DNA from: Colwellia polaris
Lineage (GTDB): Archaea > Nanohalarchaeota > Nanosalinia > Nanosalinales > Nanosalinaceae
Length of the DNA stretch: 64,000 nucleotides
Reading direction: 5' to 3'
Assembly (NCBI GenBank): GCA_047617785.1
Contig: JBLGBK010000003.1
Location: 15,663-79,662 of the forward strand
Program-made: the position numbers and the translations under genes
Notes under the pieces: generated by a model
What the model saw: the letters and a program-made list of their open reading frames with translations, nothing else
Database searches by the model: none
Told to the model about the DNA's origin: nothing
Shown: in pieces, positions 25,544-56,047 of the stretch
Position numbering within the stretch: position 1 is the stretch's first letter
Layout: the number at the start of each line of letters is the position of its first letter

Positions 25544-25553
25544 CTACGCATTT

Positions 25554-28869: not shown

Positions 28870-28991
28870 ACGTTCTTAATTTCTTCCTGTGTCTTTTACT
28901 TCTGTCGGTCGGCAGAAAAAGAAAGTTTGGTAGTATATATGATTGTTTTTAACCTCTCGTATTTTTAACCAGTAGTTTGTATAACTCGGTT

Positions 28992-29471
28992 ATGGATGAA
29001 CTCAAAGCTTCGATGATTATTTTGGCTATACTTGCTATCGGTTTTGCTGCACTAGGTTTTCTACCTACTCAGAATCAGTCAAAAGTGGTTTTCCAGACCG
29101 GATCTCTTGATTCAGCAGTAAAAGTTGAGGTGGCTGATAACAGTTCTACGAGGGCGAAAGGCTTGATGAATAGAGAATCGCTTTGCAGAAGATGTGGTAT
29201 GATCTTTGTCTTTGAGAATGCCGAACAGCGTGCTTTTTGGATGAAGAACACGTCGATACCGCTGGACATAATTTTCATATCGGAGGATAGAGAGGTTATC
29301 AATGTCGAGCAGGCTGATCCTGAACCGGATGTAGCTGATGAGAATTTAACGCTTTACAGAAGTGATGAACCTGCAAAGTATGTTGTTGAAGTTAATCAGG
29401 GATTTGCTGAAGAAAAAAGTATAGAGGAGGGAACGAAAGTGTTGTTCCGCTCTATTCCTCTAGATCAATAA
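28992..29471 (+). CDS. DUF192-family protein with N-terminal membrane anchor
   Basis: RAKGLMNRESL...GMIFVF...FWMKNTSIPLDIIFI. I prefer the ATG at 28992 (MDELKAS) over the track's TTG at 28977. ATTTTTAA lies ~28 nt upstream. Confidence 0.7.
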   Translation: MDELKASMIILAILAIGFAALGFLPTQNQSKVVFQTGSLDSAVKVEVADNSSTRAKGLMNRESLCRRCGMIFVFENAEQRAFWMKNTSIPLDIIFISEDREVINVEQADPEPDVADENLTLYRSDEPAKYVVEVNQGFAEEKSIEEGTKVLFRSIPLDQ

Positions 29472-32216: not shown

Positions 32217-32456
32217 ATGGATAAAGACGAATTTGATGCAAAAGCAGAGAAGTTTCTAGACGATGGAAACCAGGAAAGAGTTAGAGATATTCTCAGAGAG
32301 TACGCTATGTGTATAGCATTCGAAGAGGACAAAGAGCTTGATAACCCTACACATCTTCTTGACTCGGTTGTTGATATTTCTACAGTGAACGACTTCACAG
32401 AATACCGTGTTGCAAAATCGCTTATACGCAACGAAATCAAAAGAGGATCAATATGA
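32217..32456 (+). CDS. small hypothetical protein
   Basis: 79-aa ORF between gatD and the kinase. Its stop overlaps the next start (ATGA). No motif recognised. Confidence 0.4.
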   Translation: MDKDEFDAKAEKFLDDGNQERVRDILREYAMCIAFEEDKELDNPTHLLDSVVDISTVNDFTEYRVAKSLIRNEIKRGSI

Positions 32457-33001
32457 CGCAGCTTTACGGTGTTGCTGGCCTGCCTCTATCAGGTAAAACC
32501 ACTGTAGCCGGCAAGATGCAGCAAAATGGCTTCAAAAAAGTCGACATGGGTGATGTCGTAAGAGAAGAAATGGATAAAAGAGGAGTTCCAGCTGAGGAAA
32601 CAGGAGATTTCGTCTCCGCTCTAAGAAAACAGAATGGTATGGCTGCTATAGCAGAACTTACGCTTCCATATGTTGAAGAAGTATTACAGGAAAACGAAAA
32701 AGTGGTTATCAGCGGTATGCGAAGCTGGATGGAAAAAGAATGCTTTGAAAAGAATCTTAGCGAGCAATTAAATATAATTGCAGTATGGGCATCTCGAGAA
32801 ACACGTTTTGAAAGACAGGAAGGTCGTGGAAGAGAAGAAGATCAGGTAGTAAAGCTTGAGGAAAGAGATGAACGTGAGATTGAGCACGGTGCTGCCAAAT
32901 TAATTACTTTAGCAGATTATCTTCTCGTTAACGAGTTTGATAGTCTAGAAGGTTTTGAGCAGGAAGTAGAAAATGCTTTACAAGAATTGGAGGTAAAATA
33001 A
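32453..33001 (+). CDS. P-loop nucleotide kinase-like protein (UPF0200 / dephospho-CoA-kinase-like)
   Basis: YGVAGLPLSGKTTVA (P-loop) and VDMGDVVREEM. Confidence 0.65.
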   Translation: MTQLYGVAGLPLSGKTTVAGKMQQNGFKKVDMGDVVREEMDKRGVPAEETGDFVSALRKQNGMAAIAELTLPYVEEVLQENEKVVISGMRSWMEKECFEKNLSEQLNIIAVWASRETRFERQEGRGREEDQVVKLEERDEREIEHGAAKLITLADYLLVNEFDSLEGFEQEVENALQELEVK

Positions 33002-33006
33002 GTACT

Positions 33007-34851
33007 ATGGATTACGAAAATCTCGGCTTTAAATGTGGGATCGAAATACATCAACAGCTAGCAACAGAAACCAAACTCTTCTGCAACTGTCCAGTTGACA
33101 TGGAAGACGAAGAAAAGGACTTCCAGGTTAGAAGGCAGTTAAAATCGGTCGCAGGAGAAAGCGGAGAACGAGACGAAGCCGCAGAAGTTGAATCAGAAAG
33201 CTCAAACATATTTTTGTACAACTACTACGCAAGAAACAACTGCCTGGTTGAACTAGACGAGGAACCGCCGCATAAACTCAATCAGGAAGCACTTGATACA
33301 GCATTAACCTTCGCACGAATGATAGGTGCTAATATACCAAGTGAAATTCAGATAATGCGTAAAATAGTGGTTGATGGCTCCAATACGTCAGGATTCCAGA
33401 GAACAGCGATGGTAGGGCTTGATGGCGAACTAGAAACAGAGACGGGAAAAGTAGCTATCGATGATATTGAACTTGAAGAAGAGTCAGCAGGAATTCACAG
33501 CAGAAGCGCAGAAGAATCAGTATACGACCTCAATCGACTAGGAATACCGCTAGTCGAAGTAGGAACTGATGCATCAATCCAGAATCCAGAACACGCACGC
33601 GAAGTCGCAAAAGAACTCGGAATGCTACTACGATCAACAGGCAAAGCACGTAGAGGAATAGGAACAATCAGACAGGACGTCAACGTATCAATAGAAGACG
33701 GTGCACGTGTCGAAATCAAAGGATTCCAGGATGTAGAGAACATCGATAACTTGATTGAATTGGAAGTAACACGTCAGAAGAACCTTGTTGAACTAGGCCA
33801 AGAACTTGAAGAAAGCGAAGTACTTGTAGACAACGTAACACATCTTTTCGATGACTCAGATAACGAAATACTATCAACAGTACTAGGAAATAATGGGGAG
33901 GTCTACGGCTTCAAACTGCCGCAGCTTGAAGGTAAGATGAAACAGATAATCTCGGGAGACCGATACCTAGCCAAAGAACTAGTCGACTATGGGAAAAAAT
34001 ATGGAATCAACGGACTAATTCACACAGACGAAGATATAGAAGGCTATGGGCTCGAAACAGAGTTTAAGGAGCTTGCAGATACCTTTAAACGAGAAGACGG
34101 GGATGTCCTCGCGATAATGGCGGGTCCAAAACAGAAGGTAAGAGCAGCCGCCAAAGCAGTTCGAGACCGAGCAGAAAAGATTTACAGAGGAGAAGTCCCT
34201 GAAGAAACACGCAACGCGGAACAGGACTTCACATCAACGTACCTCAGACCTCTTCCGGGAAGCGCACGAATGTATCCGGAGACAGATATACAACCTGTCA
34301 AAATAACAGATGAAGAAATAGGAAAGATCGACCATAATCTGCCCGATACGCTAGAAGAACGCAGAGAAAAGTATGCGGAAGAAATCGGTGAAGAACTGGC
34401 CATACAGATCACAAGCAGCAGGAAGCTCAACACGTTTGAAGAACTCAAAGAGAGTCACGATATGAAGAATGCTGCAAATCTTCTGGTCAACACTCTTCCA
34501 CAGCTGGAAGATGACGGGGTGGCGGTTAATAGGCTTTCCACGGAAGATCTTAGCTATCTCCTGGACGCTCTTGAGAGCGATGAAATAAAGTCAGGAGAGT
34601 TAGAGAAGGCGGTAAGACTTTCAGTTGAATCTGGTCCTGAAGAAGCAGTTGAACGGATACAAGAGAACAGGGTGAGCGAAGATGAAATACGTGAAGCAGT
34701 TCAAGAAGTAATCGATGAGAAACAGGACATGATTGAAGAACAGGGCGAGCACGCGCAGGGAGCTTTGATGGGATTAGTAATGCAGAAGGTTGAGGCCGAC
34801 GGCTCAACGGTTTCAAGAATTCTATCCGAAGAACTGCAAGAGCACCTGTAA
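33007..34851 (+). CDS. gatE: Glu-tRNA(Gln) amidotransferase subunit E
   Basis: GFKCGIEIHQQL near the N-terminus. 614 aa, with a C-terminal GatB/YqeY-like tail. Confidence 0.95.
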   Translation: MDYENLGFKCGIEIHQQLATETKLFCNCPVDMEDEEKDFQVRRQLKSVAGESGERDEAAEVESESSNIFLYNYYARNNCLVELDEEPPHKLNQEALDTALTFARMIGANIPSEIQIMRKIVVDGSNTSGFQRTAMVGLDGELETETGKVAIDDIELEEESAGIHSRSAEESVYDLNRLGIPLVEVGTDASIQNPEHAREVAKELGMLLRSTGKARRGIGTIRQDVNVSIEDGARVEIKGFQDVENIDNLIELEVTRQKNLVELGQELEESEVLVDNVTHLFDDSDNEILSTVLGNNGEVYGFKLPQLEGKMKQIISGDRYLAKELVDYGKKYGINGLIHTDEDIEGYGLETEFKELADTFKREDGDVLAIMAGPKQKVRAAAKAVRDRAEKIYRGEVPEETRNAEQDFTSTYLRPLPGSARMYPETDIQPVKITDEEIGKIDHNLPDTLEERREKYAEEIGEELAIQITSSRKLNTFEELKESHDMKNAANLLVNTLPQLEDDGVAVNRLSTEDLSYLLDALESDEIKSGELEKAVRLSVESGPEEAVERIQENRVSEDEIREAVQEVIDEKQDMIEEQGEHAQGALMGLVMQKVEADGSTVSRILSEELQEHL

Positions 34852-34947: not shown

Positions 34948-36624
34948 ATGCCAGGATTCGGAAACAACCCGGTTTTCATCATGTCTGAAGATGCCGAGAG
35001 GCAGCATGGTGAAGACGCACAGCAAGAAAATATCGAAGCATGCAAAACCGTAGGAAACTCAGTAAGAACTACTCTAGGTCCAAAAGGAATGGATAAAATG
35101 ATGGTCGACGGAGTAGGAGACCTAGTAGTCACCAACGACGGTGTAACAATACTAGAAGAAATGGATATTCAGCATCCAGCAGCCAAAATGATGGTAGAAG
35201 TCGCACAGACCCAGGAAGAAGAAGTCGGCGATGGAACCACCACTGCAGTAGTTCTCGCAGGGGAACTGCTCAAACAGGCAGAAGATCTGCTGGATCAGGA
35301 AATCCATCCAACAATAATCACACAGGGATACCGACTCGCGCGAGAAAAAAGCATCCAGGTGCTTGAAGACATCTCAGAAGAAGTAGATATCAACGATACT
35401 GAAACACTGGAGAAAGTAGCCAAGACAGCAATGACAGGCAAGTCAGCAGAAAGTTCACGCGACTACCTCTCAGAAATCACAGTCAGCGCTATCAAACAGG
35501 TAGCAGAAGAGAAAAATGATAGCATCCTAATTGACAGAGACCAAATCAAGGTTGAAAAACAACAGGGAGGTACAATCGACGATACAGAACTTGTAGAAGG
35601 AGTAATTCTCGATAAGGAGAAAGTGCATAGTGGGATGCCTAACACAGTTGAAGACAGCAATATAGCGCTTCTCAACACTGCAATCGAGGTCAAGGAGACA
35701 GAAACAGATGCAGAAATCAATATCTCCGATCCAAGCCAGATGAAAAACTTCGTAGAACAGGAAGAAGAACAATTGAAGGAAATGGTTGAAAAACTGGATG
35801 ATGCAGGAGTAAACGTAGTATTCTGCAAGAAAGGAATCGATGACATCGCCCAGCACTACCTCGCCAAAAGAGGGATCCTCGCATTCAGAAGAGTCAGCAG
35901 CGGCGATCTAGAAAAGCTAAGCAAGGCAACAGGGGCAAATATCCTCACAAGCTTAGAAGATATCCAGGACTCCGATCTAGGAACAGCAGGAACAATTGAA
36001 CACCGAATCGTCGGAGGAGACTCCATGACATTCGTCTACGACTGTCCAGAAGCCAAATCCGTCTCCATCCTCATCAGAGGAGGAACAGAACACGTAATTG
36101 ATGAAATTGAAAGGGCAGTAGAAGACGCAATCGGCGGAGTAAGCTCAGCTCTACAACACGGAAGAGTAGTCGGTGGAGGAGGAGCAACAGAAGTAGAACT
36201 AGCACGAGAACTTCGAGACTACGCAGACAGCGTAGGTGGAAGAGAACAGCTAGCAATCAACGCATTCGCGGACGCAATGGAAGTCATCCCACGAACACTC
36301 GCAGAAAATGCAGGTCACGACCCAATCGATACACTCGTCGACCTCAGAAACAAACATGAGAAAGGAGAAGTATGGGCAGGAATCAACGTAACAACAGGAG
36401 AAAGCGATGCCCTATTCGATCAAGGAGTAGTAGAACCACGACAGACCAAGACACAGGCAGTACAATCCGCCAGCGAAGCAGCAGAAATGATTCTCAGAAT
36501 CGACGACGTAATCTCTGCATCAGGATTTGACAGCGATGGTGGAGATTCAGGAGGACCTCCAGCTGGCGGCCCAGGCGGCGGAATGCCTGGTGGCGGCATG
36601 GGAGGAATGGGCGGCATGATGTAA
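34948..36624 (+). CDS. ths: thermosome (group II chaperonin) subunit
   Basis: [22 protein letters not shown], and a C-terminal [10 protein letters not shown] tail. Confidence 0.95.
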
Positions 36625-36739: not shown

Positions 36740-37507
36740 ATGTCAGACCGATCAGATAACGAGGTTGAAATAAACCACGGTAACGGCGATGATTACGAAG
36801 TTGTCCCTGTAGGACCAATCAAGAAACTGGAAAGAAGAATTGACGAGATGGAGCAACAAAACCAACAGGGAGGCGGTGCTGCCGGAGATCGTATGGTCAG
36901 CGATATGATGGAAATAATGAAAACTAACCAGAAGATCGTCAACGACATGACTGAGTCAACACACGAACTGAAGAACTCGGTAGAAGATCTCACACACAAA
37001 ATGGATGAAGTAGTAGATAACATGAACAGCTTCATGGATCTTCTTACAGAGGCTTCTGAAGTAGATATGGAAGGAGAAGTCATGGGAGACATGGAAAGCC
37101 GAATCTCCAAAGCAATCGGCGACGAAATGCAAGACGTAGCTGAGGATATTAAACAGTCTAATCAAAAAGTCGTTGAGAATTTAGACAATATTAATGAGAG
37201 TTTGAGAAGAGCTTATGCTTCTCAGGATAGTCAAGATTTCTCGCCTCAAAATAGTAGTAACTCTAGCCCGTCGGGTTCTCCACAGAACCGGCAAAAATCT
37301 GCTAGCTCTTCATCGACTAATTCGGTTAATAGAGCTTCTCAAAGTTCGGGAAGTTCCCATCAGCGAAGTAGCAGCTCATCTATTCAGTCAACGTCAGGCA
37401 GTTCTACTCAGAGTCAAGGTTCGGGGAATGGTAACAGTGATTTAGGCAGTATAGGTAATGATTCTGACCGTATGGAAAAGTTGAAGAAGAAGTTTTCTGA
37501 AGAATGA
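36740..37507 (+). CDS. hypothetical protein: coiled-coil N-half and Ser-rich low-complexity C-half, translationally coupled to the first pilin
   Basis: I prefer the ATG at 36740 (MSDRSDNE) over the track's TTG at 36713. ATAAATA lies at ~36691 and GAGGT 12 nt upstream of the ATG. The stop TGA overlaps the next gene's ATG (ATGA at 37504-37507). Confidence 0.5.
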   Translation: MSDRSDNEVEINHGNGDDYEVVPVGPIKKLERRIDEMEQQNQQGGGAAGDRMVSDMMEIMKTNQKIVNDMTESTHELKNSVEDLTHKMDEVVDNMNSFMDLLTEASEVDMEGEVMGDMESRISKAIGDEMQDVAEDIKQSNQKVVENLDNINESLRRAYASQDSQDFSPQNSSNSSPSGSPQNRQKSASSSSTNSVNRASQSSGSSHQRSSSSSIQSTSGSSTQSQGSGNGNSDLGSIGNDSDRMEKLKKKFSEE

Positions 37508-37998
37508 TGGATAGAAAAGGAGTTACTCCTGTAGTTGCAACAGTACTTTTGATATCTATAGGTATAGCAGCAGTAGGTACTGCCGGAGTTTTTCTCCAGG
37601 ATATTGGAGATACTCTTAGAGAGAATGCTAACGATAGGATAGCAGGTGAGAACCGGATAGAGAATTCTGATATCTCTATAGAATATGCTTTTGAAAATGC
37701 TGACGGAGATATAGCTCTTGATGTTAGAAATACAGGTTCTACTAATTTAGAAGTTAAAGAAGATGGTGACGACTTATGGAATATCTATATTGAGGGGCGT
37801 CCTCAAGGCTCGTGGGAACTATCTGATACTGCTCTTGATAATTCGGATGATGTCGATTTATCGCCTCAAGAACAGCTCAGAATAGATACAAATGAAGACT
37901 ATCCTTCTACGGGGAACTCTAAAAGGGTCCAGGTATCAGGAATTTATGAAACACAGTCATCAATAATTTGCTCCTATAATGACGATGGGAGCTGCTAG
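37504..37998 (+). CDS. archaeal type IV pilin (DUF1628/Pilin_N-type class III signal peptide)
   Basis: MMDRKG|VTPVVATVLLISIGIAAVGTAGVF. The C-terminus reads CSYNDDGSC. Confidence 0.75.
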   Translation: MMDRKGVTPVVATVLLISIGIAAVGTAGVFLQDIGDTLRENANDRIAGENRIENSDISIEYAFENADGDIALDVRNTGSTNLEVKEDGDDLWNIYIEGRPQGSWELSDTALDNSDDVDLSPQEQLRIDTNEDYPSTGNSKRVQVSGIYETQSSIICSYNDDGSC

Positions 37999-38058
37999 AG
38001 GCAGTAATGACTTAGTTATATAAACCGTTTAACACTATGAAATTTATAGAGAGATATT

Positions 38059-38589
38059 ATGTTTGATATGAAAAATAGAAAGGGTATTACGCCCGTAATC
38101 GCGATTGTCCTACTCCTTATGGTTACAGTAGGAGCGGTCGGAGTGGTTTACACACAGTTCCAGTCACTTGTAGGTGATCCTGCAGATGAAGTGGGTAATC
38201 AGCAGCAAGTGCAGAACACAGAACTGTCAATCCGACCTTATCTCAACGACGATGATGATACCATCAACATCACGGTAGAAAATACCGGTGACGAGTCATT
38301 TGTCCTTAACGAGACAATGAGAATTACCTACGCTCCAGATGGAGAAAACTCTGGATTCGAGTATGGTAGTGCAGACGGTATTGGAAATCTTGTTGCCGCT
38401 GGAGGAACAACGCCTCTATGTCACAACGATGACACCACTATGGATCCTGGAGATACCGTAGACTGTAATACCGGTATTCAATATCCGGAAGCAACTTCGT
38501 CCGTAGGAATCATCATCGAGTTTAGAGGAGAGGAAAAATCTTGGTCAGAAACCTGTGATCCAGAGAATTCTGACTCGCTGACTTGTTAA
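38059..38589 (+). CDS. archaeal type IV pilin (DUF1628/Pilin_N-type class III signal peptide)
   Basis: MFDMKNRKG|ITPVIAIVLLLMVTVGAVGVVY. Four Cys in the C-terminal half. Confidence 0.75.
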   Translation: MFDMKNRKGITPVIAIVLLLMVTVGAVGVVYTQFQSLVGDPADEVGNQQQVQNTELSIRPYLNDDDDTINITVENTGDESFVLNETMRITYAPDGENSGFEYGSADGIGNLVAAGGTTPLCHNDDTTMDPGDTVDCNTGIQYPEATSSVGIIIEFRGEEKSWSETCDPENSDSLTC

Positions 38590-38666
38590 AAAGTCGGATC
38601 TTATCTTTCCCCTTCGATTCTTTTTCCCCTTTATTTTATATTCGGTTAAGTGCCTACACTTACTGT

Positions 38667-39329
38667 ATGAAGGTAGGCCAGACTCAGGCTGTAACTGCAG
38701 TAATTATTACAGGGATAACTCTAAGCGCAGTATCTGCGACATATATATGGGGTACTCCTATACTGGAGAAAAGACAAAGTCAGCAGCAGTTGGTCCAGAC
38801 TGAAGACCAGGTCAGGTCTCTTTATCAATCAATTGATTCAATCAGTAATAGCGGTGAAGGTACTACAGAGACTTTAGAGTTTGATTTTTCAGAGGATGCA
38901 AATATTCGTTTAAACGAATCAGGCAATTATATTGAAGTTAGTACTTCTGCTAGTAGTTCTCCGTATGCTAAAGGTACGTGGTTCCTTTTGGAAGGTGAGA
39001 GGCTGCAAGGATTATCTATAGGCGAAGGGACTTACGCAAGACGAGGTCAAGATCAGCCAGGGGTTATAGCGTTAAGAGCTACTGGCGATAGCAATGTTCA
39101 GTTAAGTTATCGTGTTGAGTTCAGAAATATGTATACTGAAACTGCATCTGGAAATAGACTTGAACAAGTCGATCTGCAATCTGTACGAGGGGATACGGCT
39201 ACTGGAGATACCGAGGTAGTTATTTCCAATGAAGGAACTGAGATAGATAGTGGTTCAGAAGCAGTAGACACAGAAACCGGAGAGACTATAGATCGTGAAA
39301 GAACTGTTGTAACTGTAGAGTTCCGGTAA
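38667..39329 (+). CDS. prepilin-like protein (G|Q class III signal)
   Basis: MKVG|QTQAVTAVIITGITLSAVSATYIWG. The ATG at 38667 is preferred. TTATTTTATATT lies at 38631-38642, ~30 nt upstream. Confidence 0.55.
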   Translation: MKVGQTQAVTAVIITGITLSAVSATYIWGTPILEKRQSQQQLVQTEDQVRSLYQSIDSISNSGEGTTETLEFDFSEDANIRLNESGNYIEVSTSASSSPYAKGTWFLLEGERLQGLSIGEGTYARRGQDQPGVIALRATGDSNVQLSYRVEFRNMYTETASGNRLEQVDLQSVRGDTATGDTEVVISNEGTEIDSGSEAVDTETGETIDRERTVVTVEFR

Positions 39330-39350
39330 TATCTGAAGAGGTCGAGAATT

Positions 39351-39755
39351 TTGAAAGGACAGTATTTGGCCGTAGAATATATTTTTGTCATAGGTCTAAG
39401 TTTGATACTTGTTATAGCTTCGGTAGGTTTATTTAACGCCTATCGTGAGGAGGTTGTAGAGACCTCTATTGATGGTCAAACTGATATTGTTGCCTCCAAG
39501 ATGAGCGTTCAACTGTATAATTTGAAGCAGCATGAACAAGGTACTGTTGAGAAGACTATTCAGTTACCGGAATCTATGGGTGATAGAGACTATGAAATTA
39601 TTCTTGCTAATCCGTCGAACTTGATAATAGATATTCAAGGAGAAGAATACTCCTATGAATTTCCTTCACTTTCTGACTATGACTTCAGCGGTGATGCCGA
39701 AGGAGGAGACATAACTTTATACAAAAACAATAACCAGATAAGTATAGCAGGGTGA
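39351..39755 (+). CDS. prepilin-like protein (MKG|Q class III signal), TTG start
   Basis: (M)KG|QYLAVEYIFVIGLSLILVIASVGLF. The TTG start is supported by the MKGQ motif shared with the genes at 43349 and 45903, and by GAGGT 8 nt upstream. Confidence 0.55.
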   Translation: MKGQYLAVEYIFVIGLSLILVIASVGLFNAYREEVVETSIDGQTDIVASKMSVQLYNLKQHEQGTVEKTIQLPESMGDRDYEIILANPSNLIIDIQGEEYSYEFPSLSDYDFSGDAEGGDITLYKNNNQISIAG

Positions 39756-39761
39756 AAAAAT

Positions 39762-41459
39762 ATGAATATGCATGGACTAGTTGAACGTCTTAGAAGAGTA
39801 AGGCACCCAGAGTGGTATGAGGAAGAGGAAGAAGAGAATACACATCAAGAAGGGGTAAGTCTTCCTGCACCAGGTAAGTTTTCACCGGAAATGGTCGATG
39901 AGGGAGAAGCCTCAGCTGACTTAACAGATGTTGACACCACATATCCTCTAGTACCAGAAGATCCGGATAAAGGCGAAATAGTCTATGCTTGGGCTCATAT
40001 AAAATGGGATGAGGAAGCAGGAGAAGTTATATACCATATAATAGAACCTGAGCTTACAGAAGAGACTGAGAAAACTCTTGATAAGATAAGCCAAATTATG
40101 GAGAGAAGCTTCGATGTAACATTCAATGATATGGAGAGCCAAGAAGCAGAGGAATATCTCGAAGAGAAAATAGACATGATTGTTGATAAATATGATATCT
40201 CTATTGATGATGAGCAGCGAGAAGTAATCAGATACTACACTAAAAGAGACTTTGCGGGACTAGGCAAGCTACAACCGCTAATGAATGATACAGAAGTCGA
40301 AGATATATCTTGTGACGGGAGCGGCATACCGGTATATGCTTATCACCGAAATCCACGTTTTGGATCGGTTAAGACTAGTATAACCTGGGAGGATAAAGGT
40401 GAACTTGACGAGTTCGTCATGAAACTAGCACAGAGGTGTGGAAAGTCTGTCTCTGTTTCCAGTCCTTTACTTGATGGATCGCTGCCAGATGGTTCTCGTG
40501 TGCAGGCAACGTTAGCGACTGATATTGCCCGCAAAGGATCTAACTTCACCGTTCGACGGTTTACAGAGGATCCATTAACACCTATCCATATGATGGATTA
40601 TGAAACTGAAAATGCCCAGATGCTTAGCTATCTTTGGACGCTTGTAGAACATGGAAAGTCTATACTTGTATGTGGAACTACCGGAGCAGGTAAAACTTCG
40701 CAGTTGAACTCTCTAAGTCTGTTTATCAAACCTGAAAAAAAGATTGTATCTATTGAGGATACTCCTGAGTTACGGCTTCCTCACGATCACTGGGTGCCTG
40801 AAGTCGCCCGTTCAGGATTCGGATCCTCAGCTGAAGAAGGCGGAGAGGTATCAATGGATGACCTGCTTAAGGAATCTTTACGTCAGCGACCTGAATATAT
40901 TATCGTCGGAGAGGTTCGAGGAGAAGAAGCATACATACTTTTCCAGCAGATGGCAACAGGACACACAGGACTGTCTACGATCCACGCAGATTCACTTGAC
41001 ATGCTTATGGACAGGCTTACAACCGATCCGATCGACCTTTCTCCATCATTGATTGAGACATTGGATATGGTTATGCTGATTAAACGTATCCGGCGTGGAG
41101 GAAGCTACATCCGACGTATTACAGGACTTCATGAGATCCGAGGCTATGATGAGCGTACAGGTATTGATGAGAATCAGGTATTTGGATGGGATCCGGGAGA
41201 GGATGAGTATATTGTGAAGAATAACTCTCTGATTCTAAAGGATATTGCTGATCAGAGCGGTATGGATTACACCGATCTCCAGGATGAACTCCGTAATCGC
41301 CAGCATGTCTTGAGTTGGATGCAAGAGGAGCAACACAAACATTACCGAAAAGTTGGTGACATTATTTCACGTTATTATTCTAATCCTGAATCAATTCTGG
41401 AGAGAGTTGGGCAAACATTTAATTCAAATAAAGACGAATTAGAAGTCAAGGATGCTTAG
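39762..41459 (+). CDS. type II/IV secretion ATPase (VirB11/GspE family; archaeal PilB/FlaI-like)
   Basis: CGTTGAGKTS (Walker A), YIIVGEVRGEEA, GHTGLSTIHA. Confidence 0.9.
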   Translation: MNMHGLVERLRRVRHPEWYEEEEEENTHQEGVSLPAPGKFSPEMVDEGEASADLTDVDTTYPLVPEDPDKGEIVYAWAHIKWDEEAGEVIYHIIEPELTEETEKTLDKISQIMERSFDVTFNDMESQEAEEYLEEKIDMIVDKYDISIDDEQREVIRYYTKRDFAGLGKLQPLMNDTEVEDISCDGSGIPVYAYHRNPRFGSVKTSITWEDKGELDEFVMKLAQRCGKSVSVSSPLLDGSLPDGSRVQATLATDIARKGSNFTVRRFTEDPLTPIHMMDYETENAQMLSYLWTLVEHGKSILVCGTTGAGKTSQLNSLSLFIKPEKKIVSIEDTPELRLPHDHWVPEVARSGFGSSAEEGGEVSMDDLLKESLRQRPEYIIVGEVRGEEAYILFQQMATGHTGLSTIHADSLDMLMDRLTTDPIDLSPSLIETLDMVMLIKRIRRGGSYIRRITGLHEIRGYDERTGIDENQVFGWDPGEDEYIVKNNSLILKDIADQSGMDYTDLQDELRNRQHVLSWMQEEQHKHYRKVGDIISRYYSNPESILERVGQTFNSNKDELEVKDA

Positions 41460-42324
41460 AAAGTACGCCAACTTATGCTATAATTTAGTAGGCAGCTTTG
41501 TGCTTCCATATGTGGATCTTTTTGAGGGTTTAAGACCTCAAATATCGAAAGCAGATATAGAGGTATCGCTGCCAGAGTATGTAAGCTTGATGTTTGCTAC
41601 TTCCGGATTTGTATCTTTGTTTATATTTTTAGTTGTTGGCACCCTGCTTCTGTTGTCTCAAGGTATTTCTGGCATAATATTAGCCTTAACACTTTCTATA
41701 GTATCTGGCGCGGCGACAATTATAGGTTTCTACATCTATCCTTCTTTGATAAAGTCAAGTAGAGCTTCTGAGATCCGAGACACTCTGCCTTTTGCTACTA
41801 TGTATCTCTCTACCTTGGCCGGTACTGGTACTTCTTTACCGGAGATTTTCTCAAATCTTGCAGAGGTAGAGGAGTACGGAGAAGTTGCACGGGAGGCTGA
41901 GAAGATTGATAGAGATATTAAGACATTTGGTATGGATGCAAGTAAAGCAATTCAAAGAGCAGCTGAGAGAACCCCTAGTGAAGATTTTCGAGAGCTTATG
42001 TGGGGTCTTAACCATGTTTTGACGACAGGAGGAACTCTTAGAGACTTTCTACAGGAACGTGCAAGCCGTTTAATGGATGATTATGAAAGAAGAGTGGAAG
42101 AATTTGCAGATTCACTATCTTTATTGGTGGAAATGTATATTACTGTTGTAATTGTAGGTTCAATTGTATTTACATCAATGTCCGCAGTTATGACAACTTT
42201 TACAGATCTTTCTCCTAGTGTAATTGTAACAATACAGATGCTTCTTATCTTCTTTGGGCTGCCATTAATTTCAGGCATGTTCATACTTCTTGTACAAGGT
42301 CTATCGCCGGGTGGAGTACAATGA
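41452..42324 (+). CDS. T2SSF-domain platform protein, first half (TadC/PilC/FlaJ-like)
   Basis: 290 aa. TM pair, cytoplasmic helical domain (DTLPFATMYLSTLAGTG...), then TMs. Overlaps the ATPase stop. Confidence 0.75.
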   Translation: MLRKYANLCYNLVGSFVLPYVDLFEGLRPQISKADIEVSLPEYVSLMFATSGFVSLFIFLVVGTLLLLSQGISGIILALTLSIVSGAATIIGFYIYPSLIKSSRASEIRDTLPFATMYLSTLAGTGTSLPEIFSNLAEVEEYGEVAREAEKIDRDIKTFGMDASKAIQRAAERTPSEDFRELMWGLNHVLTTGGTLRDFLQERASRLMDDYERRVEEFADSLSLLVEMYITVVIVGSIVFTSMSAVMTTFTDLSPSVIVTIQMLLIFFGLPLISGMFILLVQGLSPGGVQ

Positions 42325-43349
42325 TTGACTTTTTCCAAGACGAGAAACTGGAGGCAGGATGGTCTATTGAGGATAAAATCCTCTTTATATCAATTTCATT
42401 AGGTATTGTTCTTGTAGGATCAGGTCTCTTAACCTATGCTGCTTTAGGGCCGCAGCTAGGTGGTGCGATACTCATCTTTGGTTTAATAATGTCGGTCTTA
42501 CCTTACTCTGGCTACTCGTTCTTGAAAAATAGGGCAATTAGGGAAATAGAAAACCAGTTCCCTTCATTTTTGAACGACCTTGCTGAATCTAAGAGAGGAG
42601 GTATGACTCTATTAAGAGCTCTCGAGTCAGCAAGAGAGTCTGACTATGGAAGACTGAATAACGAGATAGAGAAAGTTCATAACCAAATGACCTGGGGCGT
42701 GCCGTTTCCTGAAGTAATGGAAAGATTTTCCAGGAGAATGAGCGCTTCCTCAGTTGTTCAGCAATCTTTGTCTATCATTATTCAGAGCTTTCAGAGCGGA
42801 GGAAACATAACTGCTACTATTGAATCGGTCGCAGAGGATGCAGATCAACTTAGAGAAGTTATTCAAGAGAAAGATGCTCAGCTTAAACAACAGCTCGTTA
42901 TCATGTATGTTATTTTCTTCCTGTTCATAGGAATAACAGTAGGAATATATTTCCTGCTTGGACAGCTGTTAGGTCTAGGTTCTCCAGATGCAGGAGCACT
43001 CTCTGGAATAGGAGAGGTAATAGGTAGCGGCGGAAACACTGATGTAAACTTCTGTAATGGCAACATACAAACAGCTACTCCGTTCTGCCAAACTGCTAGA
43101 ATATTCGGTTTTGTACCTTCTGATATAGCACTTACGTCTCAACAAGCAGAAGACAGAAGTTATGGTAATATGGCCTACTATAAATCACTTCTTTTCCTTA
43201 TGCTAATAGTTCAAGGTATGTGTACTGCTGCAGTAGCAGGTCAGATAAAGGAAGGAAGCCCTAGCGGAGGGGTAAAGCATGCTCTAATAATGCTTCCTTT
43301 AGCACTTGTTGTATATATGGTAGTGGTAGCTCCTGCAGGTGTAAGCTGA
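42321..43349 (+). CDS. T2SSF-domain platform protein, second half (TadC/PilC/FlaJ-like)
   Basis: 342 aa with the same architecture (QFPSFLNDLAESKRGGMTLLRALE...). ATGA overlap with the previous gene. Confidence 0.75.
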   Translation: MIDFFQDEKLEAGWSIEDKILFISISLGIVLVGSGLLTYAALGPQLGGAILIFGLIMSVLPYSGYSFLKNRAIREIENQFPSFLNDLAESKRGGMTLLRALESARESDYGRLNNEIEKVHNQMTWGVPFPEVMERFSRRMSASSVVQQSLSIIIQSFQSGGNITATIESVAEDADQLREVIQEKDAQLKQQLVIMYVIFFLFIGITVGIYFLLGQLLGLGSPDAGALSGIGEVIGSGGNTDVNFCNGNIQTATPFCQTARIFGFVPSDIALTSQQAEDRSYGNMAYYKSLLFLMLIVQGMCTAAVAGQIKEGSPSGGVKHALIMLPLALVVYMVVVAPAGVS

Positions 43350-44176
43350 TGATGAAAGGTCAATCGACCATAGAGTTTCTTGGAACTTCAATGATGTTCA
43401 TAGCGCTTTTAGGTACTATCATAATGGTTGCCTCCGATAGCTTACCCCGATTTGATTCCGAGGTAGAAGAAGCATCATTAAATATGGAATTACAAACTCT
43501 TACGACAAAAATGCTGACACAGCCAGGTGAAACTACAGGAGGATCATCTGATTGGGAGCGTAATCCTGACTTAATCGAAACCTTTGGATTGGCAGATAAG
43601 AGCGGGGAGGTTGAACGATCAAAGATACAGGCACTGGACGATAGCAGTAATTCGCCTTCGACTTTGAATTACACTGAATTTAGGTCTACGGAGAATATAG
43701 AGAATGAGTACAGAATGGTATTTACATGGTATCCTATTGTAGAATCGTCTAAAACATTTACTAGAACAAATTCTCCCTCTAAAATTCAGGAGCCTACAAC
43801 CTCTGAATACACTGACGACGGTAATACTGTCCACTATGGGTCAGCCATGATTAATGGGCAAGATATGAAATTTCTTGTAACTTCACACGATAATGTCTAC
43901 GATACAGTGTATATATCTCCAGAGTGGAATTTCCTAAACGCAGAACCTAGAGTTGAAGGCGAGGTAGTTGATATTCAGGGTCAAAACTTTACCGTTTCCG
44001 AATTCCAGAACAGAGATGAAAATCCGGGTAATTTAGTAATATTCTCCAAAAATTTGAACGACTTTGGTGCAATCCAAGGGCAGGCCAGCACCGTCATAAA
44101 ACTCAATAGATATGCCATCTTGAAGGATGTAGGCTCAGATGATTTCCCTCTTAAGATAGAGGTGTTAGCATGGTAA
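43349..44176 (+). CDS. prepilin-like protein (MKG|Q class III signal)
   Basis: MMKG|QSTIEFLGTSMMFIALLGTIIMVA, with Glu at +5 if cleaved after Gly. Confidence 0.55.
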   Translation: MMKGQSTIEFLGTSMMFIALLGTIIMVASDSLPRFDSEVEEASLNMELQTLTTKMLTQPGETTGGSSDWERNPDLIETFGLADKSGEVERSKIQALDDSSNSPSTLNYTEFRSTENIENEYRMVFTWYPIVESSKTFTRTNSPSKIQEPTTSEYTDDGNTVHYGSAMINGQDMKFLVTSHDNVYDTVYISPEWNFLNAEPRVEGEVVDIQGQNFTVSEFQNRDENPGNLVIFSKNLNDFGAIQGQASTVIKLNRYAILKDVGSDDFPLKIEVLAW

Positions 44177-45906
44177 GAAGAAAAGGGTTAAGCTATTCTC
44201 TTGAAGTTATAATATCGGCTATTATAATTCTAAGTTTCACCTATGGTATTTTTGAAATTCCTCAAGGGAATGATTGGAATCAGCATAGATCTGAGATAGA
44301 AGCTCAAGATTTGACACAGACGCTCCATAAAACAGGGCTTGCCACTAGTTTAGTTAGTAGAGGAGAGACAGGTTCTTTGCAGACAGCTATTACTACAATT
44401 TCGGATAGAGATCGTACTATCTCAGGTAGTATTACTAATATTCCTATAGGTGAGGTAGAAGTAGGATATCATACTGTTGATGAGGATCAGTACACAGTCA
44501 ATCTAGAAGACGTACAAGGATCTGGTGATATGTGCCAAGGCGACTTACAAGATGATATTGATACTCAAAAAGATATTAAAAGAACCCAGCAACTAGGTAC
44601 TTCGGATGAAAACTACGATGTTAGGCTTTATATCGCGGATACCGGCTCTCAATTTGATGAGAGCGTTGATTATAATACGGTATGGGTAGATAATGGTACA
44701 GAATGTCAGTTTACGGCATCCGATGGACCTTTCTTTTTGGAAGACAATTTCAAATGGGGAGACAGTAATAACTCCGCACCAAGCGATCATTTTCAGATAA
44801 AAAGTATAGAAGGCAATCAACTGACTATCTACAAAACCACGATACCTACTCAAATACATAAACAGATGAATGAGCCTGTAAATTCGCTTAGACCGGAAGT
44901 AGAGATGGATGCAATAGATATTAGGGATGAGGAACTGACACAGGATATAATGGTCTTCAGAAAAACTGAAGCTCTTGATGACATAGACACTGAAAGGACT
45001 AAAGTAGAGGATTACATGCAGGACTACCCTGTTTTAATGATGATGGATATAAATCAAGCAGATTTCTCAAACTCAGATTTTATGCAGAATACCAACTTCC
45101 ATTGGGTAGATGCAGGGTTTTCAGGGGGTTATGGTGGTAATCCAACAAGTATTGAATTTACTAATTCGGATATATCTAGAAATATTGAGACTTTCTTTGA
45201 AGGAATGAATGGGGATAGTGCTTCTGCAGCTCTGCCTCCTGCAGGACCAATAGTGTCCAACAATTCGGATACTCTAACGCAGGAAAATCCTGCTCTTCAA
45301 GGAGGTGCAACTCTTAATACTGCTGCATGGAGTGATCGAGTTGATAATATGGCTACAACTCCCTACGATGGCGAACCTTCTCCAGACTGTGGAACTCGAT
45401 ATGAAGGAACGGTAAATCTTCCGGGAGGTAATTACCCTATATTGAATACAGAACTAGTAGGATCAGAGGGAAGCTGTCCTACTGATGGATGGGCTGTGAA
45501 CTTTGATTTTCAAGGTTCTGCAGACACTGGTAGAGGGCCATTTCTTCAAGGGGAAGAAACAATTATCGATAGAAGAGGTTACACTATTTTAACTAACTCT
45601 GATGACTCAGGATGTGATTTAGGAGAATGTGTCGAATTTAATTTCTCAGGAAATTCCAATGTAGAGGTAATTAACTACGGTGAGAGCTTCCAAGGATTTG
45701 ATGGGGAGAGACTTGCACTGACGGGAAGGAAGACATCATATAATGAGGAGGAATTTAAGCTACTATCGTCTACGATTTTCAGCCTTTACGATTCAGAAGT
45801 AACCTTTGGAACTCAGCAGTCTTCATCTATATCTACAGATATAGTCTCTGGTGTTGATAATACTACATATATGCCTTATCAGTTACGTCTGAGGTGGAGT
45901 CGATGA
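44170..45906 (+). CDS. large prepilin-like surface protein (578 aa), no recognisable domain
   Basis: MVRRKG|LSYSLEVIISAIIILSFTYGIF. The rest is hydrophilic with scattered Cys pairs. Confidence 0.5.
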   Translation: MVRRKGLSYSLEVIISAIIILSFTYGIFEIPQGNDWNQHRSEIEAQDLTQTLHKTGLATSLVSRGETGSLQTAITTISDRDRTISGSITNIPIGEVEVGYHTVDEDQYTVNLEDVQGSGDMCQGDLQDDIDTQKDIKRTQQLGTSDENYDVRLYIADTGSQFDESVDYNTVWVDNGTECQFTASDGPFFLEDNFKWGDSNNSAPSDHFQIKSIEGNQLTIYKTTIPTQIHKQMNEPVNSLRPEVEMDAIDIRDEELTQDIMVFRKTEALDDIDTERTKVEDYMQDYPVLMMMDINQADFSNSDFMQNTNFHWVDAGFSGGYGGNPTSIEFTNSDISRNIETFFEGMNGDSASAALPPAGPIVSNNSDTLTQENPALQGGATLNTAAWSDRVDNMATTPYDGEPSPDCGTRYEGTVNLPGGNYPILNTELVGSEGSCPTDGWAVNFDFQGSADTGRGPFLQGEETIIDRRGYTILTNSDDSGCDLGECVEFNFSGNSNVEVINYGESFQGFDGERLALTGRKTSYNEEEFKLLSSTIFSLYDSEVTFGTQQSSSISTDIVSGVDNTTYMPYQLRLRWSR

Positions 45907-46760
45907 AAGGGCAGTTTATGGCGCTTACTGCAGTGTTGGTCTCTATAATCGTCCTTTCGATGACAGGCATAATTACAGAGTTTCAGAGCCAGAATTATCC
46001 TGATACTCAGGAAGATAGAGTTATCGATATGATTAAAGAAGAGGCTGGCAAAGTTGATGTAGCTCAGCCTGAGGAAAGGCGTAGTTTCACACGATTTGTT
46101 CAGTCAGTTCCTAACTATAGGGCTGAGACTACCTTTGATAACACACGTCAATGCTTTGAAGTAATACTAGAACGATCAAATTCACGAATTACAATGGACT
46201 GTGTAGGAGGAGAGGAGTCTAAAGTTGAGGAGGTTAGACTTATTTCAATAGGCTATGATGCAAGGCAAGATTATGGGGGTAACGCACCGGTACCTCCTAG
46301 AGGCACAGAATCTAGTTATGGTGGAGTCTACGATGCCGAAAACAACCGTCAACTTCACAGTGCAGGACGTTCATATTCCCTATCAGTCTATGATCTAGGT
46401 TCTAATACGTTTCTTAGTCATCAAACTTATGATATATATGACGAGGATGATGGTGAGTCAAAAGCCGACCAAATGGCAAATGATATACAATCTATGACTG
46501 ACGATGAAATAGCGTTAATAACGACCCAGAATGAGCCCCAAAATCACAGACTTCATGGTGACCTTGAAGATGCAATGTATAACTTAGGAGCTTCTCAAGA
46601 TCTCTATGGGGCAGGGGATTCTATATTTAAGAACAGAAGCGCTTACTTACTGGTTGGAAGACCGGATCTCGGTGAAGGTAACGCCTATATTGAGAAGTAC
46701 GCTGGTGAAGTAAATAACAGTTCTGATGCATGGGTTAAGGCAGATTTCAAGCTAAGCTGA
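45903..46760 (+). CDS. prepilin-like protein (MKG|Q) with a C-terminal ILEI/FAM3 'GG'-like domain
   Basis: MKG|QFMALTAVLVSIIVLSM. I prefer the ATG at 45903 (ATGA overlap with the previous stop) over the track's GTG at 45894. The C-terminal ~175 aa align by eye with the FAM3/ILEI pattern. Confidence 0.55.
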   Translation: MKGQFMALTAVLVSIIVLSMTGIITEFQSQNYPDTQEDRVIDMIKEEAGKVDVAQPEERRSFTRFVQSVPNYRAETTFDNTRQCFEVILERSNSRITMDCVGGEESKVEEVRLISIGYDARQDYGGNAPVPPRGTESSYGGVYDAENNRQLHSAGRSYSLSVYDLGSNTFLSHQTYDIYDEDDGESKADQMANDIQSMTDDEIALITTQNEPQNHRLHGDLEDAMYNLGASQDLYGAGDSIFKNRSAYLLVGRPDLGEGNAYIEKYAGEVNNSSDAWVKADFKLS

Positions 46761-50826: not shown

Positions 50827-51666
50827 ATGGACTCAGTTGAGAATTACATAGAATACGCAGGAGTATTCGCACTTTCGCTGCTCGCAGTCTCAGCAGTATA
50901 CCTGATAGACTTTTCACGCCCTATAACAGCATTTCTACTACTAACGTTTCCTATACTATACGGATTTGTCGCAAGCATCTCAACTGAAGGCTTCAACAGA
51001 GCCTCGTTAATATCTCTTTTATCATTAGTTTTGGCACCTGTTGATCTATTTATGGCGGCTGCAGCCGTATTTATCTCATTCACTACTGTCCTAATATCGT
51101 TCTTTTCGAGCGGGAAACAGTTCAGAGATTTCTACGGATCGACAGCACTCCCTCTACTCCTTACCGGACTAATTGTAAGCTCAGGGCTGTTTGTTGCAGC
51201 TTCAACAAGTCAACAGTTTGGAAATAAAATTACCAATACTACAGCGAATGTTGTAGGATCTCAAACACAGAACGTAATTGAAACAACAGGTATAGTAGGC
51301 TCTCAGCAACAGCAACAGGCCAGAATAGTAGAGGCAACCAGCCAGAACTCTGTAGTTCTTACACAGCAATATGTCCTGAATGAAACAAGAGAGGACTTTA
51401 ACAGAGATCAGATTAGATCTCTTAATCAGGCTTTCCAGGGCGCGGAACAGGAAATACCTGATCGGCTCTCATCAGAGATAGAGGACAGAGATCTAGATGT
51501 TGATGTTGAAGGTCAGATGGAAGACCTAGTTAGAGATAACTTTGATCAGAAGCTTTTCATTGTAATAATACCGCTATTAACACTTCTAATCTACTCATTG
51601 CAGCCGGCAGTAGGGCTTTTAACAGCTGTAGTAGCTTCTATAATCGTTCGTTTCCGACATCTATAG
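50827..51666 (+). CDS. membrane protein, unknown
   Basis: 279 aa. About 5 N-terminal TM segments, a polar Q-rich linker, and one C-terminal TM region. Confidence 0.5.
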   Translation: MDSVENYIEYAGVFALSLLAVSAVYLIDFSRPITAFLLLTFPILYGFVASISTEGFNRASLISLLSLVLAPVDLFMAAAAVFISFTTVLISFFSSGKQFRDFYGSTALPLLLTGLIVSSGLFVAASTSQQFGNKITNTTANVVGSQTQNVIETTGIVGSQQQQQARIVEATSQNSVVLTQQYVLNETREDFNRDQIRSLNQAFQGAEQEIPDRLSSEIEDRDLDVDVEGQMEDLVRDNFDQKLFIVIIPLLTLLIYSLQPAVGLLTAVVASIIVRFRHL

Positions 51667-56046: not shown

Positions 56047-56047
56047 A

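Follow-up and report, generated by a model that had tools for sequence, protein, structure and literature searches.

A 64,000-nucleotide stretch of contig JBLGBK010000003.1 (assembly GCA_047617785.1; the whole stretch is called the window below), which its sequence places in a DPANN archaeon of the Nanohaloarchaeota, carries eleven co-directional genes at positions 36740-46760 of the + strand. They encode one ATPase of the PilB/ArlI family, two T2SSF platform proteins, seven proteins with class III-like (prepilin) N-termini and one coiled-coil protein. We interpret this locus, with a probability of roughly 0.7, as a DPANN-wide type IV pilus operon of the Tad/Pil type with a role in attachment to a host or a surface. 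The elements that are new here are a likely major pilin with a hypervariable head and an ILEI/PANDER domain on the last minor pilin, g11.

The open reading frames (ORFs) of the locus were named g1 to g11 in their order on the + strand (Table 1). Most of them overlap, and their boundaries were confirmed in the sequence, with start/stop overlaps at 37504 (4 nt), 41452 (8 nt), 42321 (4 nt), 43349 (1 nt), 44170 (7 nt) and 45903 (4 nt). Independent gene calls by JGI and Logan on identical contigs gave the same eleven products. The locus occupies 10,021 of the 64,000 bases (15.7%), and Rfam and tRNA scans of the window returned nothing within it. An earlier note on this DNA, made from the letters alone, had counted eleven co-directional genes with the same six overlaps and had put their share of the window at about 15%, in agreement with these results.

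ATPase, platform and class III substrates

The product of g6 was identified as a secretion ATPase by Pfam analysis (T2SSE, 113.8 bits with a gathering score of 24.9; PilB3_C, 29.5 bits). Its Walker A (GTTGAGKT), Walker B/Asp box (IIVGEVRG) and His box motifs are intact in the sequence, and its C-terminal domain is PilB3-like. The closest solved relatives were A. fulgidus GspE (2oap, 369 bits), S. acidocaldarius FlaI (275 bits) and CpaF (146 bits). Both g7 and g8 scored well above the T2SSF gathering score of 25.2 (62.2 and 66.5 bits, respectively); g7 aligned to positions 5-234 of 555 in an ArlJ model, and g8 to positions 191-384 of 465 and 288-451 of 555 in ArlJ models. These two genes encode the membrane platform as two half-size proteins, like bacterial TadB and TadC. 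The split was kept, with g8 adjoining g7, in the DPANN loci that had long enough sequence, and euryarchaeal systems commonly have a pair of tadC-like genes in a locus (Makarova et al.). The VirB11/GspE-type ATPase and the two half-size T2SSF genes that the earlier note had recognized are thus borne out by the Pfam and NCBIfam scores.

The locus resembles the bacterial Tad (type IVc) pilus in its single CpaF/TadA-type ATPase, its two single-domain platform proteins, its short pilins with minor pseudopilins and the adhesive role proposed for it. However, it encodes no secretin, TadZ, TadD or TadG, its pilins are of the archaeal type (TIGR02537), and g6 resembles archaeal GspE and FlaI far more than it does CpaF.

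Seven of the products (g2, g3, g4, g5, g9, g10 and g11) begin with a short basic leader that ends in Gly and is followed by a hydrophobic helix. With a slash between leader and helix, their N-termini are MMDRKG/VTPVVATVLL for g2, (MFD)MKNRKG/ITPVIAIVLLLMVTVGAVGVVYTQFQ for g3, MKVG/QTQAVTAV for g4, MKG/QYLAVEY for g5, MMKG/QSTIEF with Glu at +5 for g9, MVRRKG/LSYSLEV for g10 and MKG/QFMALTAV for g11. Every motif was kept in about 33-41 orthologues of other Nanohaloarchaeota, among which the consensus was [RS]KG/[VIL][TS]PV, RKG/ITPVIA and KGQ/TQAVTAV for g2, g3 and g4, and KGQ/YLAVE, KGQ/xxxEF, RKG/xGYxIE and KGQ/FMxIS for g5, g9, g10 and g11, respectively. The 89 six-frame ORFs of the window that have 100 amino acids (aa) or more were all screened with a loose home-made rule for class III signals, and twelve passed. 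These included all seven genes, clustered in one block; the other five were an internal start in g7, two more internal starts, a Sec-type signal and one unexplained small ORF. In addition, g2 and g3 scored 26.9 and 23.0 bits with TIGR02537, the archaellin/pilin N-terminal domain (cut-off 20), and g2 scored 17.7 bits with Pilin_N, which is under the gathering score. The seven N-termini quoted in the earlier note were exact, and its reading of them as class III signals is supported by the rule for all seven and by TIGR02537 for two. A 164-aa ORF away from the locus, at 28977-29471 (+), satisfied the loose rule with the N-terminus MDELKA/SMIILAILAIGFAALGF and may encode another pilin-like or membrane-anchored protein.

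As that note had observed, a prepilin peptidase is missing from the locus. No match to Peptidase_A24 was obtained among the eleven locus products or among eight further window proteins that were scanned, six of which are membrane or secreted proteins. A 279-aa membrane protein at 50827-51666 had no Pfam match, and no GxGD motif was seen in it by eye.

The two pilins upstream of the ATPase that match TIGR02537 behave differently from each other across genomes. Whereas g2 is 80% identical to its counterpart in the nearest genome, g3 is 91% identical over its N-terminal 45 aa and 33% identical over its head domain (93% for the ATPase), and its first ~30 mature residues are near-invariant in 35 genomes. 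Because its N-terminal helix is invariant and its head hypervariable, g3 is the best candidate for the major pilin and likely serves as such. Its true start is probably the ATG at 38068. A g3 profile gave at best a marginal N-terminal match to the sequences of solved structures. The gene lies between two intergenic regions with TATA-like boxes and T-runs. At 38590-38666, a stem-loop (38578-38597) spans the g3 stop and is found with the T-runs TTTTT and TTTATTTT, and a TTTATATT box lies ~26 nt upstream of the g4 ATG. To judge from these signals, the region may combine a terminator of the pilin transcript with a promoter for g4-g11, and this arrangement would fit a separate transcription of g3 at a high level. 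A scan of the window for bacterial-type promoters and terminators was uninformative, the window being archaeal.

The same scores bear on whether the locus could be a reduced or divergent archaellum, that is, a rotating filament in which g2 would act as an ArlF/G-like stator, g3 as the archaellin, g6 as ArlI, g7 and g8 as ArlJ, and g1 would replace ArlC/D/E or ArlX. The archaellum shares with the locus the superfamily of its ATPase, platform and class III substrates, and the best NCBIfam models were archaellar: g6 scored 404.5 bits with the FlaI equivalog NF058587, the ArlJ model gave 101 bits, and g2 scored 33.4 bits with ArlF over nearly the full model length and 20.2 bits with ArlG. A weak match of g3 to Arch_flagellin (PF01917, 20.9 bits) points the same way. 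Long filaments on Nanohalobium were captioned archaella by La Cono et al., and genome papers credit Nanohaloarchaeota other than the metagenome-assembled genomes (MAGs) of Nucleotidisoterales with archaella. However, all the archaellar models stayed under their cut-offs (550 for FlaI and ArlJ, 110 for ArlF and ArlG, 29.5 for Arch_flagellin). No KaiC/ArlH match was obtained with Pfam or NCBIfam among the eleven locus products, and ArlC/D/E/X are absent from the locus, whereas ArlH, ArlF, ArlG and ArlC/D/E are present in all archaellated archaea (census in PMC4858521). The five extra KGQ-type minor pilins are a typical pilus trait, and g6 is nearer to A. fulgidus GspE than to FlaI. Moreover, FlaI, FlaJ and an "archaellin" were found in the proteome of Nha. 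antarcticus, and this set was judged insufficient for an archaellum and pilus-like (Hamm et al., 2019, PMC6642349). We thus regard an archaellum as improbable, in line with the earlier note, which had preferred a pilus and had seen no archaellin-type N-terminus, FlaF/G/H or KaiC-like gene.

Table 1. Genes and intergenic signals of the pilus-like locus (positions in the window)
Feature	Position	Strand	Product (aa)	Basis or remark
g1, acidic coiled-coil protein	36740..37507	+	255	stop overlaps g2 start
g2, pilin, PilA / 'FlaF-like'	37504..37998	+	164	TIGR02537 above cut-off
g3, pilin, candidate major pilin	38059..38589	+	176	TIGR02537, invariant N-terminus, variable head
Intergenic region after g3	38590..38666			stem-loop, T-runs and box, by sequence reading
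g4, minor pilin-like, DUF7289-like	38667..39329	+	220	sub-threshold DUF7289, orthologue matches
g5, minor pilin-like, TTG start, DUF7266-like	39351..39755	+	134	sub-threshold DUF7266, orthologue matches
g6, secretion ATPase (PilB / ArlI / GspE / CpaF family)	39762..41459	+	565	T2SSE, PilB3_C
g7, platform protein, TadB-like	41452..42324	+	290	one T2SSF; N-terminal half of ArlJ/PilC
g8, platform protein, TadC-like	42321..43349	+	342	one T2SSF; C-terminal half of ArlJ/PilC
g9, minor pilin-like, DUF7287-like	43349..44176	+	275	DUF7287 matches among orthologues
g10, pilin-like protein, no family or fold	44170..45906	+	578	class III-like N-terminus
g11, minor pilin-like with ILEI/PANDER domain	45903..46760	+	285	PF15711, fold

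Accessory pilin-like proteins and the haloarchaeal pil set

Haloarchaeal pil operons were found by tblastn of g6 against plasmids, and the loci of a Halobaculum halophilum plasmid, of Haloferax mediterranei pHME505 and of a Salinibaculum plasmid were compared with the present one. The gene order in these operons is PilB, PilC, DUF7287, DUF7288, DUF7261, DUF7266 and DUF7289. In the Halobaculum halophilum operon, Pilin_N had a strong Pfam match, and so had DUF7287, DUF7288, DUF7266 and DUF7289 among the genes that follow the ATPase and the fused T2SSF protein of ~680 aa; the third downstream gene matched DUF7261 weakly (E = 2e-4, under the gathering score). The five downstream genes of pHME505, compared by size alone, have matching sizes, and the Salinibaculum operon contains DUF7288, DUF7266 and DUF7289. 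Such haloarchaeal and euryarchaeal pil operons (Makarova et al., 2016, PMC4858521, Fig. 4B-C type) have in common with our locus a PilB-type ATPase, a T2SSF platform, Pilin_N pilins and five accessory pilin-like genes. They differ in that their platform is fused, whereas it is split in two here; the DUF7289-like and DUF7266-like genes stand upstream of the ATPase here; the ATPase has 565 aa here and is without the large extensions of the haloarchaeal enzymes, two of which are annotated with roughly 830-990 aa; g10, at threefold the length of DUF7288, shows no detectable membership in that family; and no counterpart of g1 was found in them.

The accessory proteins were related to these families by per-member Pfam counts among orthologues and by searching hidden Markov models (HMMs) built from orthologue alignments against 220 haloarchaeal ORFs. 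These analyses replaced hhalign comparisons with single haloarchaeal DUF proteins because a single-sequence template was too weak. With DUF7266, g5 scored 21.3 bits (E = 2.4e-4; gathering score 27.6) and 31 of its 36 orthologues matched (best E = 1.1e-8); the top three matches of the g5 HMM were the three DUF7266 genes. The g4 product scored 19.3 bits with DUF7289 (gathering score 27), with matches in 22 of 34 orthologues (best E = 4.6e-7), and haloarchaeal DUF7289 genes were among the top matches of its HMM (E about 1e-4). By tblastn, g4 is also present in loci of Aenigmarchaeota and other DPANN. A 243-aa protein of Nha. antarcticus, similar in size to g4 and possibly its orthologue, has been annotated as arCOG02911 in the literature. 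A wider g4 profile search returned only proteins of like size and identity from Nanohaloarchaeota or unnamed metagenomes, and no haloarchaeal DUF7289 members. For g9, the window protein itself had no Pfam match, 13 of 38 orthologues matched DUF7287 (best E = 9.2e-6), and the top three HMM matches were the three genes at the DUF7287 position (best E = 3.5e-6).

On the Halobaculum halophilum plasmid, a ~500-aa hypothetical protein encoded beside the pil operon but on the other strand (L084:15535-17058, -) was the top match of the g4 profile (E = 7.5e-5). This protein may be a larger paralogue of the DUF7289-like minor pilin family.

The 578-aa product of g10 has conserved cysteines, a conserved N-terminal region of ~240 aa and a conserved extreme C-terminus (..LRW). 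It had no Pfam or NCBIfam match, none of its 35 orthologues matched DUF7288, and no Pfam match recurred among them. Twenty homologues were detected, and every source name given was 'hypothetical'. An AlphaFold2 (AF2) model was obtained with a predicted local distance difference test score (pLDDT) of 72 and a predicted template modelling score (pTM) of 0.70; a fold search with it against the PDB and viral models found nothing (best E = 0.04), a whole-chain query that may mask domain-level matches, and the g10 profile had no match among PDB sequences. The g10 HMM ranked DUF7288 genes first, second and fourth, with weak E values of 0.025 to 2, and orthologues of 840-880 aa have only the first ~315 aa in common with it. 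The assignment of g10 to DUF7288 is accordingly a weak one, made by position.

The N-terminal part of g11 matched DUF7261 in 2 of 33 orthologues (best E = 0.0013), and the top match of its HMM was at the DUF7261 position (E = 0.0056). The genes g9, g10 and g11 stand in the order of DUF7287, DUF7288 and DUF7261. Overall, the profiles suggest that four of the five accessory proteins are weakly related to DUF7289, DUF7266, DUF7287 and DUF7261. No sign of a recent duplication of globular parts was seen among the accessory proteins, as hhalign aligned g9 with g4 and g5 with g11 over the N-terminal helix only.

The C-terminal part of g11 belongs to a different family. Residues ~1-105 form the pilin module that is common to all orthologues, most of which consist of only these ~105 aa, and residues ~110-285 (window positions 46230-46757) form an ILEI/PANDER (GG-lectin-type) domain of ~175 aa. 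It scored 35.8 bits with PF15711 (ILEI), over the gathering score of 27. The AF2 model of g11 (pLDDT 67) matched FAM3B PANDER (2yop, E = 8.6e-5), FAM3C ILEI (5lc2) and the POMGnT1 stem (5ggj, TM-score 0.70) in a Foldseek search, with a probability of 1.00 for all three and target TM-scores of 0.55-0.70. A g11 profile found nothing useful among the sequences of solved structures. The domain thus exceeds the threshold of the ILEI family (FAM3, POMGnT1 stem, TMEM2) and superposes on three of its structures, but it is archaeal, is fused to a class III pilin module and is 12-16% identical to the solved structures.

A word-based homologue search retrieved 14 pilin-ILEI fusion proteins, all at least 52% identical to g11 and only from the clade of the window. 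The ILEI domain alone had 472 representative homologues, mostly in proteins of 700-5000 aa, and homologues of 936 and 188 aa are named Nanohaloarchaea ILEI-domain proteins at NCBI. One homologue, P0143 (1594 aa, from an ENA metagenome), is a GpJ-like phage tail-tip protein with FNIII-A_GpJ, Phage-tail_3 and Phage_Tail_Tip domains; close to its C-terminus it has an ILEI domain that is 44% identical to that of g11 and may bind the receptor. In one relative (L004:16561-17127), a separate 188-aa ORF downstream of the g11-like pilin module encodes the ILEI domain, which indicates that the fusion gene is split there or frameshifted. Apparently the same 188-aa protein is named "interleukin-like EMT inducer domain-containing protein" at NCBI.

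Other lineages carry other modules. The g9 orthologue of the Nanohaloarchaea MAG DAL-Ass_40_71C5R (L035:13629-15074) has 481 aa with an inserted Laminin_G_3 (ConA-like lectin) domain (E = 6.4e-16), and some g10 and g11 orthologues bear unrelated C-terminal extensions of 200-300 aa. The earlier note had found no recognizable domain in five of the prepilin-like proteins and had considered the accessory proteins undescribed. This still applies to g10, which matches no family or fold, whereas g11 has an ILEI/PANDER domain, four of the five are weakly related to haloarchaeal DUF families, and the locus matches one already reported (see below).

These modules and the many minor-type substrates are also compatible with a short, envelope-spanning structure in place of a pilus, i.e., a pseudopilus, a bindosome-like assembly or a DNA-uptake machine comparable to the Sulfolobus Bas system, the type II secretion system (T2SS) or competence pili. 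Five of the seven substrates are of the "minor" type, two of the families carry lectin-type domains, and NCBIfam gave 191.9 bits for BasE and 43.5 bits for BasF. Uptake of DNA would suit the lack of nucleotide biosynthesis in Nanohaloarchaeota and has been proposed for pili of related clusters; the locus has a single ATPase, and the Tad ATPase CpaF is reported, in the accessible text of PMC11300603, to power both extension and retraction. However, the Bas scores are far under the cut-offs of 1000 and 1300, and Pfam and NCBIfam detected no substrate-binding-protein family, secretin or ComEA/ComEC-type gene in the locus. Furthermore, g3 bears the signature of an abundant, exposed major pilin, and long filaments occur on a cultivated relative; filaments were observed on cells of Ca. 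Nanohalobium constans. A non-pilus assembly of this kind therefore appears doubtful to us, though it is the less remote of the two alternative machines.

Conservation of the locus and its coiled-coil protein

Synteny was assessed by tblastn of all window proteins against 80 fetched loci. In about 40 Nanohaloarchaeota genomes the genes were arranged as thermosome, g1-g11, RFC large subunit and RFC small subunit, while loci of Aenigmarchaeota, Undinarchaeota and other DPANN shared, wholly or partly, the arrangement thermosome, g1, pilin(s), g4, ATPase, g7 and g8. Identities of the ATPase were 92-93% with two Nanohaloarchaea MAGs, 67-80% with nearly all other Nanohaloarchaeota and ~50% with sequences from Aenigmarchaeota, Undinarchaeota and other DPANN. 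Downstream of the platform genes, ten of eleven distant DPANN loci that were inspected have a KGQ/xNIE[YF] gene of 150-216 aa followed by a gene of 300-660 aa, mostly with the N-terminus [KR]KG/xxHxxE, and in three of these ten there is a third gene with a class III-like start, which encodes 119-180 aa and mostly has G/QF or A/QF at the N-terminus. In the eleventh locus, neither of the first two gene types was seen downstream of the platform genes. The g9-g10-g11 set thus also appears to be old.

The gene order corresponds to a locus that has been reported before. Two conserved type IV pilus-like loci, each with a coiled-coil protein, occur across cluster 2 DPANN and Undinarchaeota, according to the accessible text of Hamm et al. 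(2024; PMC11291902), and Locus 1 is described there with FlaF and PilA, CpaF and TadC beside GroEL, GatE, Mpg and a P-loop NTPase. In the window, an AAA_18 NTPase (32453-33001), GatE (33007-34851) and the thermosome (34948-36624) precede g1, and the order NTPase, GatE, thermosome, coiled-coil protein, FlaF-PilA, CpaF and TadC therefore matches Locus 1 as far as it is described in that text. The phylum, the flanks (P-loop NTPase, GatE, GroEL/thermosome) and the gene order are the same, and the reported conservation across Nanohaloarchaeota, Aenigmarchaeota and Undinarchaeota was reproduced here; the comparison was by gene order and description. Within the same accessible text, CpaF, TadC, FlaF, PilA and the coiled-coil protein are named, whereas the five KGQ/RKG accessory proteins, the link to haloarchaeal DUF families, the hypervariable pilin head and the ILEI fusion are not discussed. 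A related cluster in other Nanohaloarchaeota MAGs has been reported as identical in architecture to that of Undinarchaeota, and unannotated genes beside FlaI and TadC in DPANN genomes probably encode diverse pilins (Makarova et al.). The locus has thus already been described in outline and is neither anomalous nor undescribed.

The earlier note had suggested a host-contact apparatus if the organism were an ectosymbiotic DPANN archaeon. A DPANN origin is supported by g6, which is 93% identical to that of a Nanohaloarchaea MAG, and the same host-contact role was inferred in PMC6642349 and in the accessible text of PMC11291902.

The first gene of the locus, which the earlier note left uninterpreted, encodes a conserved DPANN coiled-coil protein ('CCP'). 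Its helical core is nearly invariant in 29 genomes and is accompanied by a variable linker rich in Q, S and N and by a conserved DRMxKLRERF motif at the C-terminus; no signal peptide or transmembrane segment was found in it, and its Pfam matches were coiled-coil-type noise only. In tblastn, g1 sits between the thermosome and the pilins in Nanohaloarchaeota and recurs at 21-36% identity in loci of Aenigmarchaeota and other DPANN. Its place is that of the CCP in Locus 1 as given in the accessible text of PMC11291902, a match by position and not by alignment. Its median identity is 53%, compared to 32-42% for the pilins. A g1 profile found nothing useful among the sequences of solved structures, and the g1 HMM found no haloarchaeal counterpart. 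Because g1 has no export signal and is conserved above any pilin, we read it as cytoplasmic, and it may be a partner of the ATPase-platform complex. At the corresponding place in two haloarchaeal loci (L083:6514-7191 and L085:5972-6595), a gene for a protein of 207-225 aa lies upstream of the ATPase; these genes looked RecA/KaiC-like by eye, but a PDB sequence search with them found nothing.

The base composition of the locus raised the question of a recently acquired foreign island. Its GC content is 0.410 compared to 0.431 for the rest of the window and lies below that of every non-overlapping 10-kb segment (minimum 0.422), and its GC at third codon positions (GC3) is 0.333 compared to 0.408 (Mann-Whitney p = 4e-4). 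The AT-richness noticed by eye in the earlier note is thus real but small. However, the flanking membrane and secreted genes have an equally low GC3 of 0.32-0.37, so that the low value reflects a codon-usage class and not a foreign origin. About 40 Nanohaloarchaeota genomes have the locus at this position with its genes in this order, its core is arranged alike in other DPANN phyla, and the identity of the ATPase across genomes tracks that of the thermosome and RFC. No integrase, tRNA target or repeats were found at the borders, the tRNAs of the window lying only at about 25.5 kb. A recent foreign origin is very improbable on these grounds; the locus is vertically inherited and DPANN-wide. Its apparent oddity within a housekeeping window, as the earlier note had put it, did not hold, since the block is syntenic with the thermosome and RFC in the same ~40 genomes.

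Some further features of the window were noted. Beside the tRNA-Val at 25469-25544, Rfam reported a second tRNA at 25554-25717 (+; 164 nt, 56.5 bits) that is absent from the ARAGORN report and is probably an intron-containing archaeal tRNA. At 54460-58198 (+), a BatA/DUF7408 protein is followed by a VWA-domain protein, both with N-terminal transmembrane segments, and at 61274-62779 (+) a 501-aa secreted protein without a Pfam match is a further surface protein in a mostly housekeeping window.

Proposed pilus and its role in attachment

In the type IV pilus that we propose, a prepilin peptidase encoded outside the window would cleave the substrates after the conserved Gly, and the ATPase, acting via the platform, would lift their hydrophobic N-terminal helices from the membrane into a helical filament. 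The major subunit would be g3, in keeping with its own promoter- and terminator-like signals, and g2 would be a second PilA-like subunit or an envelope anchor. On the cytoplasmic side, the protein encoded by g1 would serve the ATPase-platform complex as a scaffold or a regulator. In bacterial type IV pili and the T2SS, minor pilins occupy the tip and prime assembly, and g4, g5, g9, g10 and g11 may likewise be minor pilins of low abundance with these two roles. At the tip, g10 and the ILEI/PANDER domain of g11 would be displayed and may bind glycans or proteins of the haloarchaeal envelope or polysaccharide particles. The stem domain of POMGnT1, to which the g11 domain is similar in fold, binds carbohydrate. 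Overall, the pilus would serve to attach nanohaloarchaeal cells to their hosts or to surfaces.

Several points weigh against this interpretation. The pilus filament itself is a prediction from genes in this organism, as is cleavage after the Gly, no prepilin peptidase having been found in the window. The best named match of g2 is the ArlF stator model, which hints at an archaellum-like part. All DUF assignments of the window's own proteins are under the Pfam gathering scores, so that these proteins are relatives and not formal members of the families. Part of the match between g4 and DUF7289 covers the hydrophobic N-terminus, and the links of g10 to DUF7288 and of g11 to DUF7261 are weak (E = 0.0056 to 2 with 220 ORFs). 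The hhalign comparison of the orthologue alignments with single haloarchaeal DUF proteins gave probabilities <10%, which is not significant. The tip location of the minor pilins is drawn solely from the bacterial analogy. Confidence in the g11 model is moderate at its pLDDT of 67, and glycan binding by its domain is suggested by analogy with POMGnT1, while the FAM3 proteins, which have the same fold, are not lectins. Finally, Hamm et al. compare the coiled-coil protein to the reovirus sigma-1 attachment protein in the accessible text of PMC11291902, which would place it outside the cell.

A more specific proposal, which we put forward tentatively and consider clearly less probable than the pilus itself, is that a host-recognition complex built of modules and evolving fast forms the pilus tip. 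In it, the conserved pilin modules of g9, g10 and g11 would serve as scaffolds for receptor-binding domains that vary between lineages and, together with the g3 head, would set the host range.

The locus bears on how DPANN episymbionts recognize specific hosts and attach to them; of the surface-appendage operons of Nanohaloarchaeota, it is the one conserved most widely. Its set of five minor pilins is apparently held in common with the pili of the haloarchaeal hosts themselves. By analogy, the ILEI-type domain on g11 makes the present copy a plausible host-attachment device, and the lineage-specific lectin-type modules on minor pilins could be determinants of host specificity. If the pilus tip is indeed modular, these modules and the g3 head would decide which haloarchaeal host a nanohaloarchaeon attaches to.

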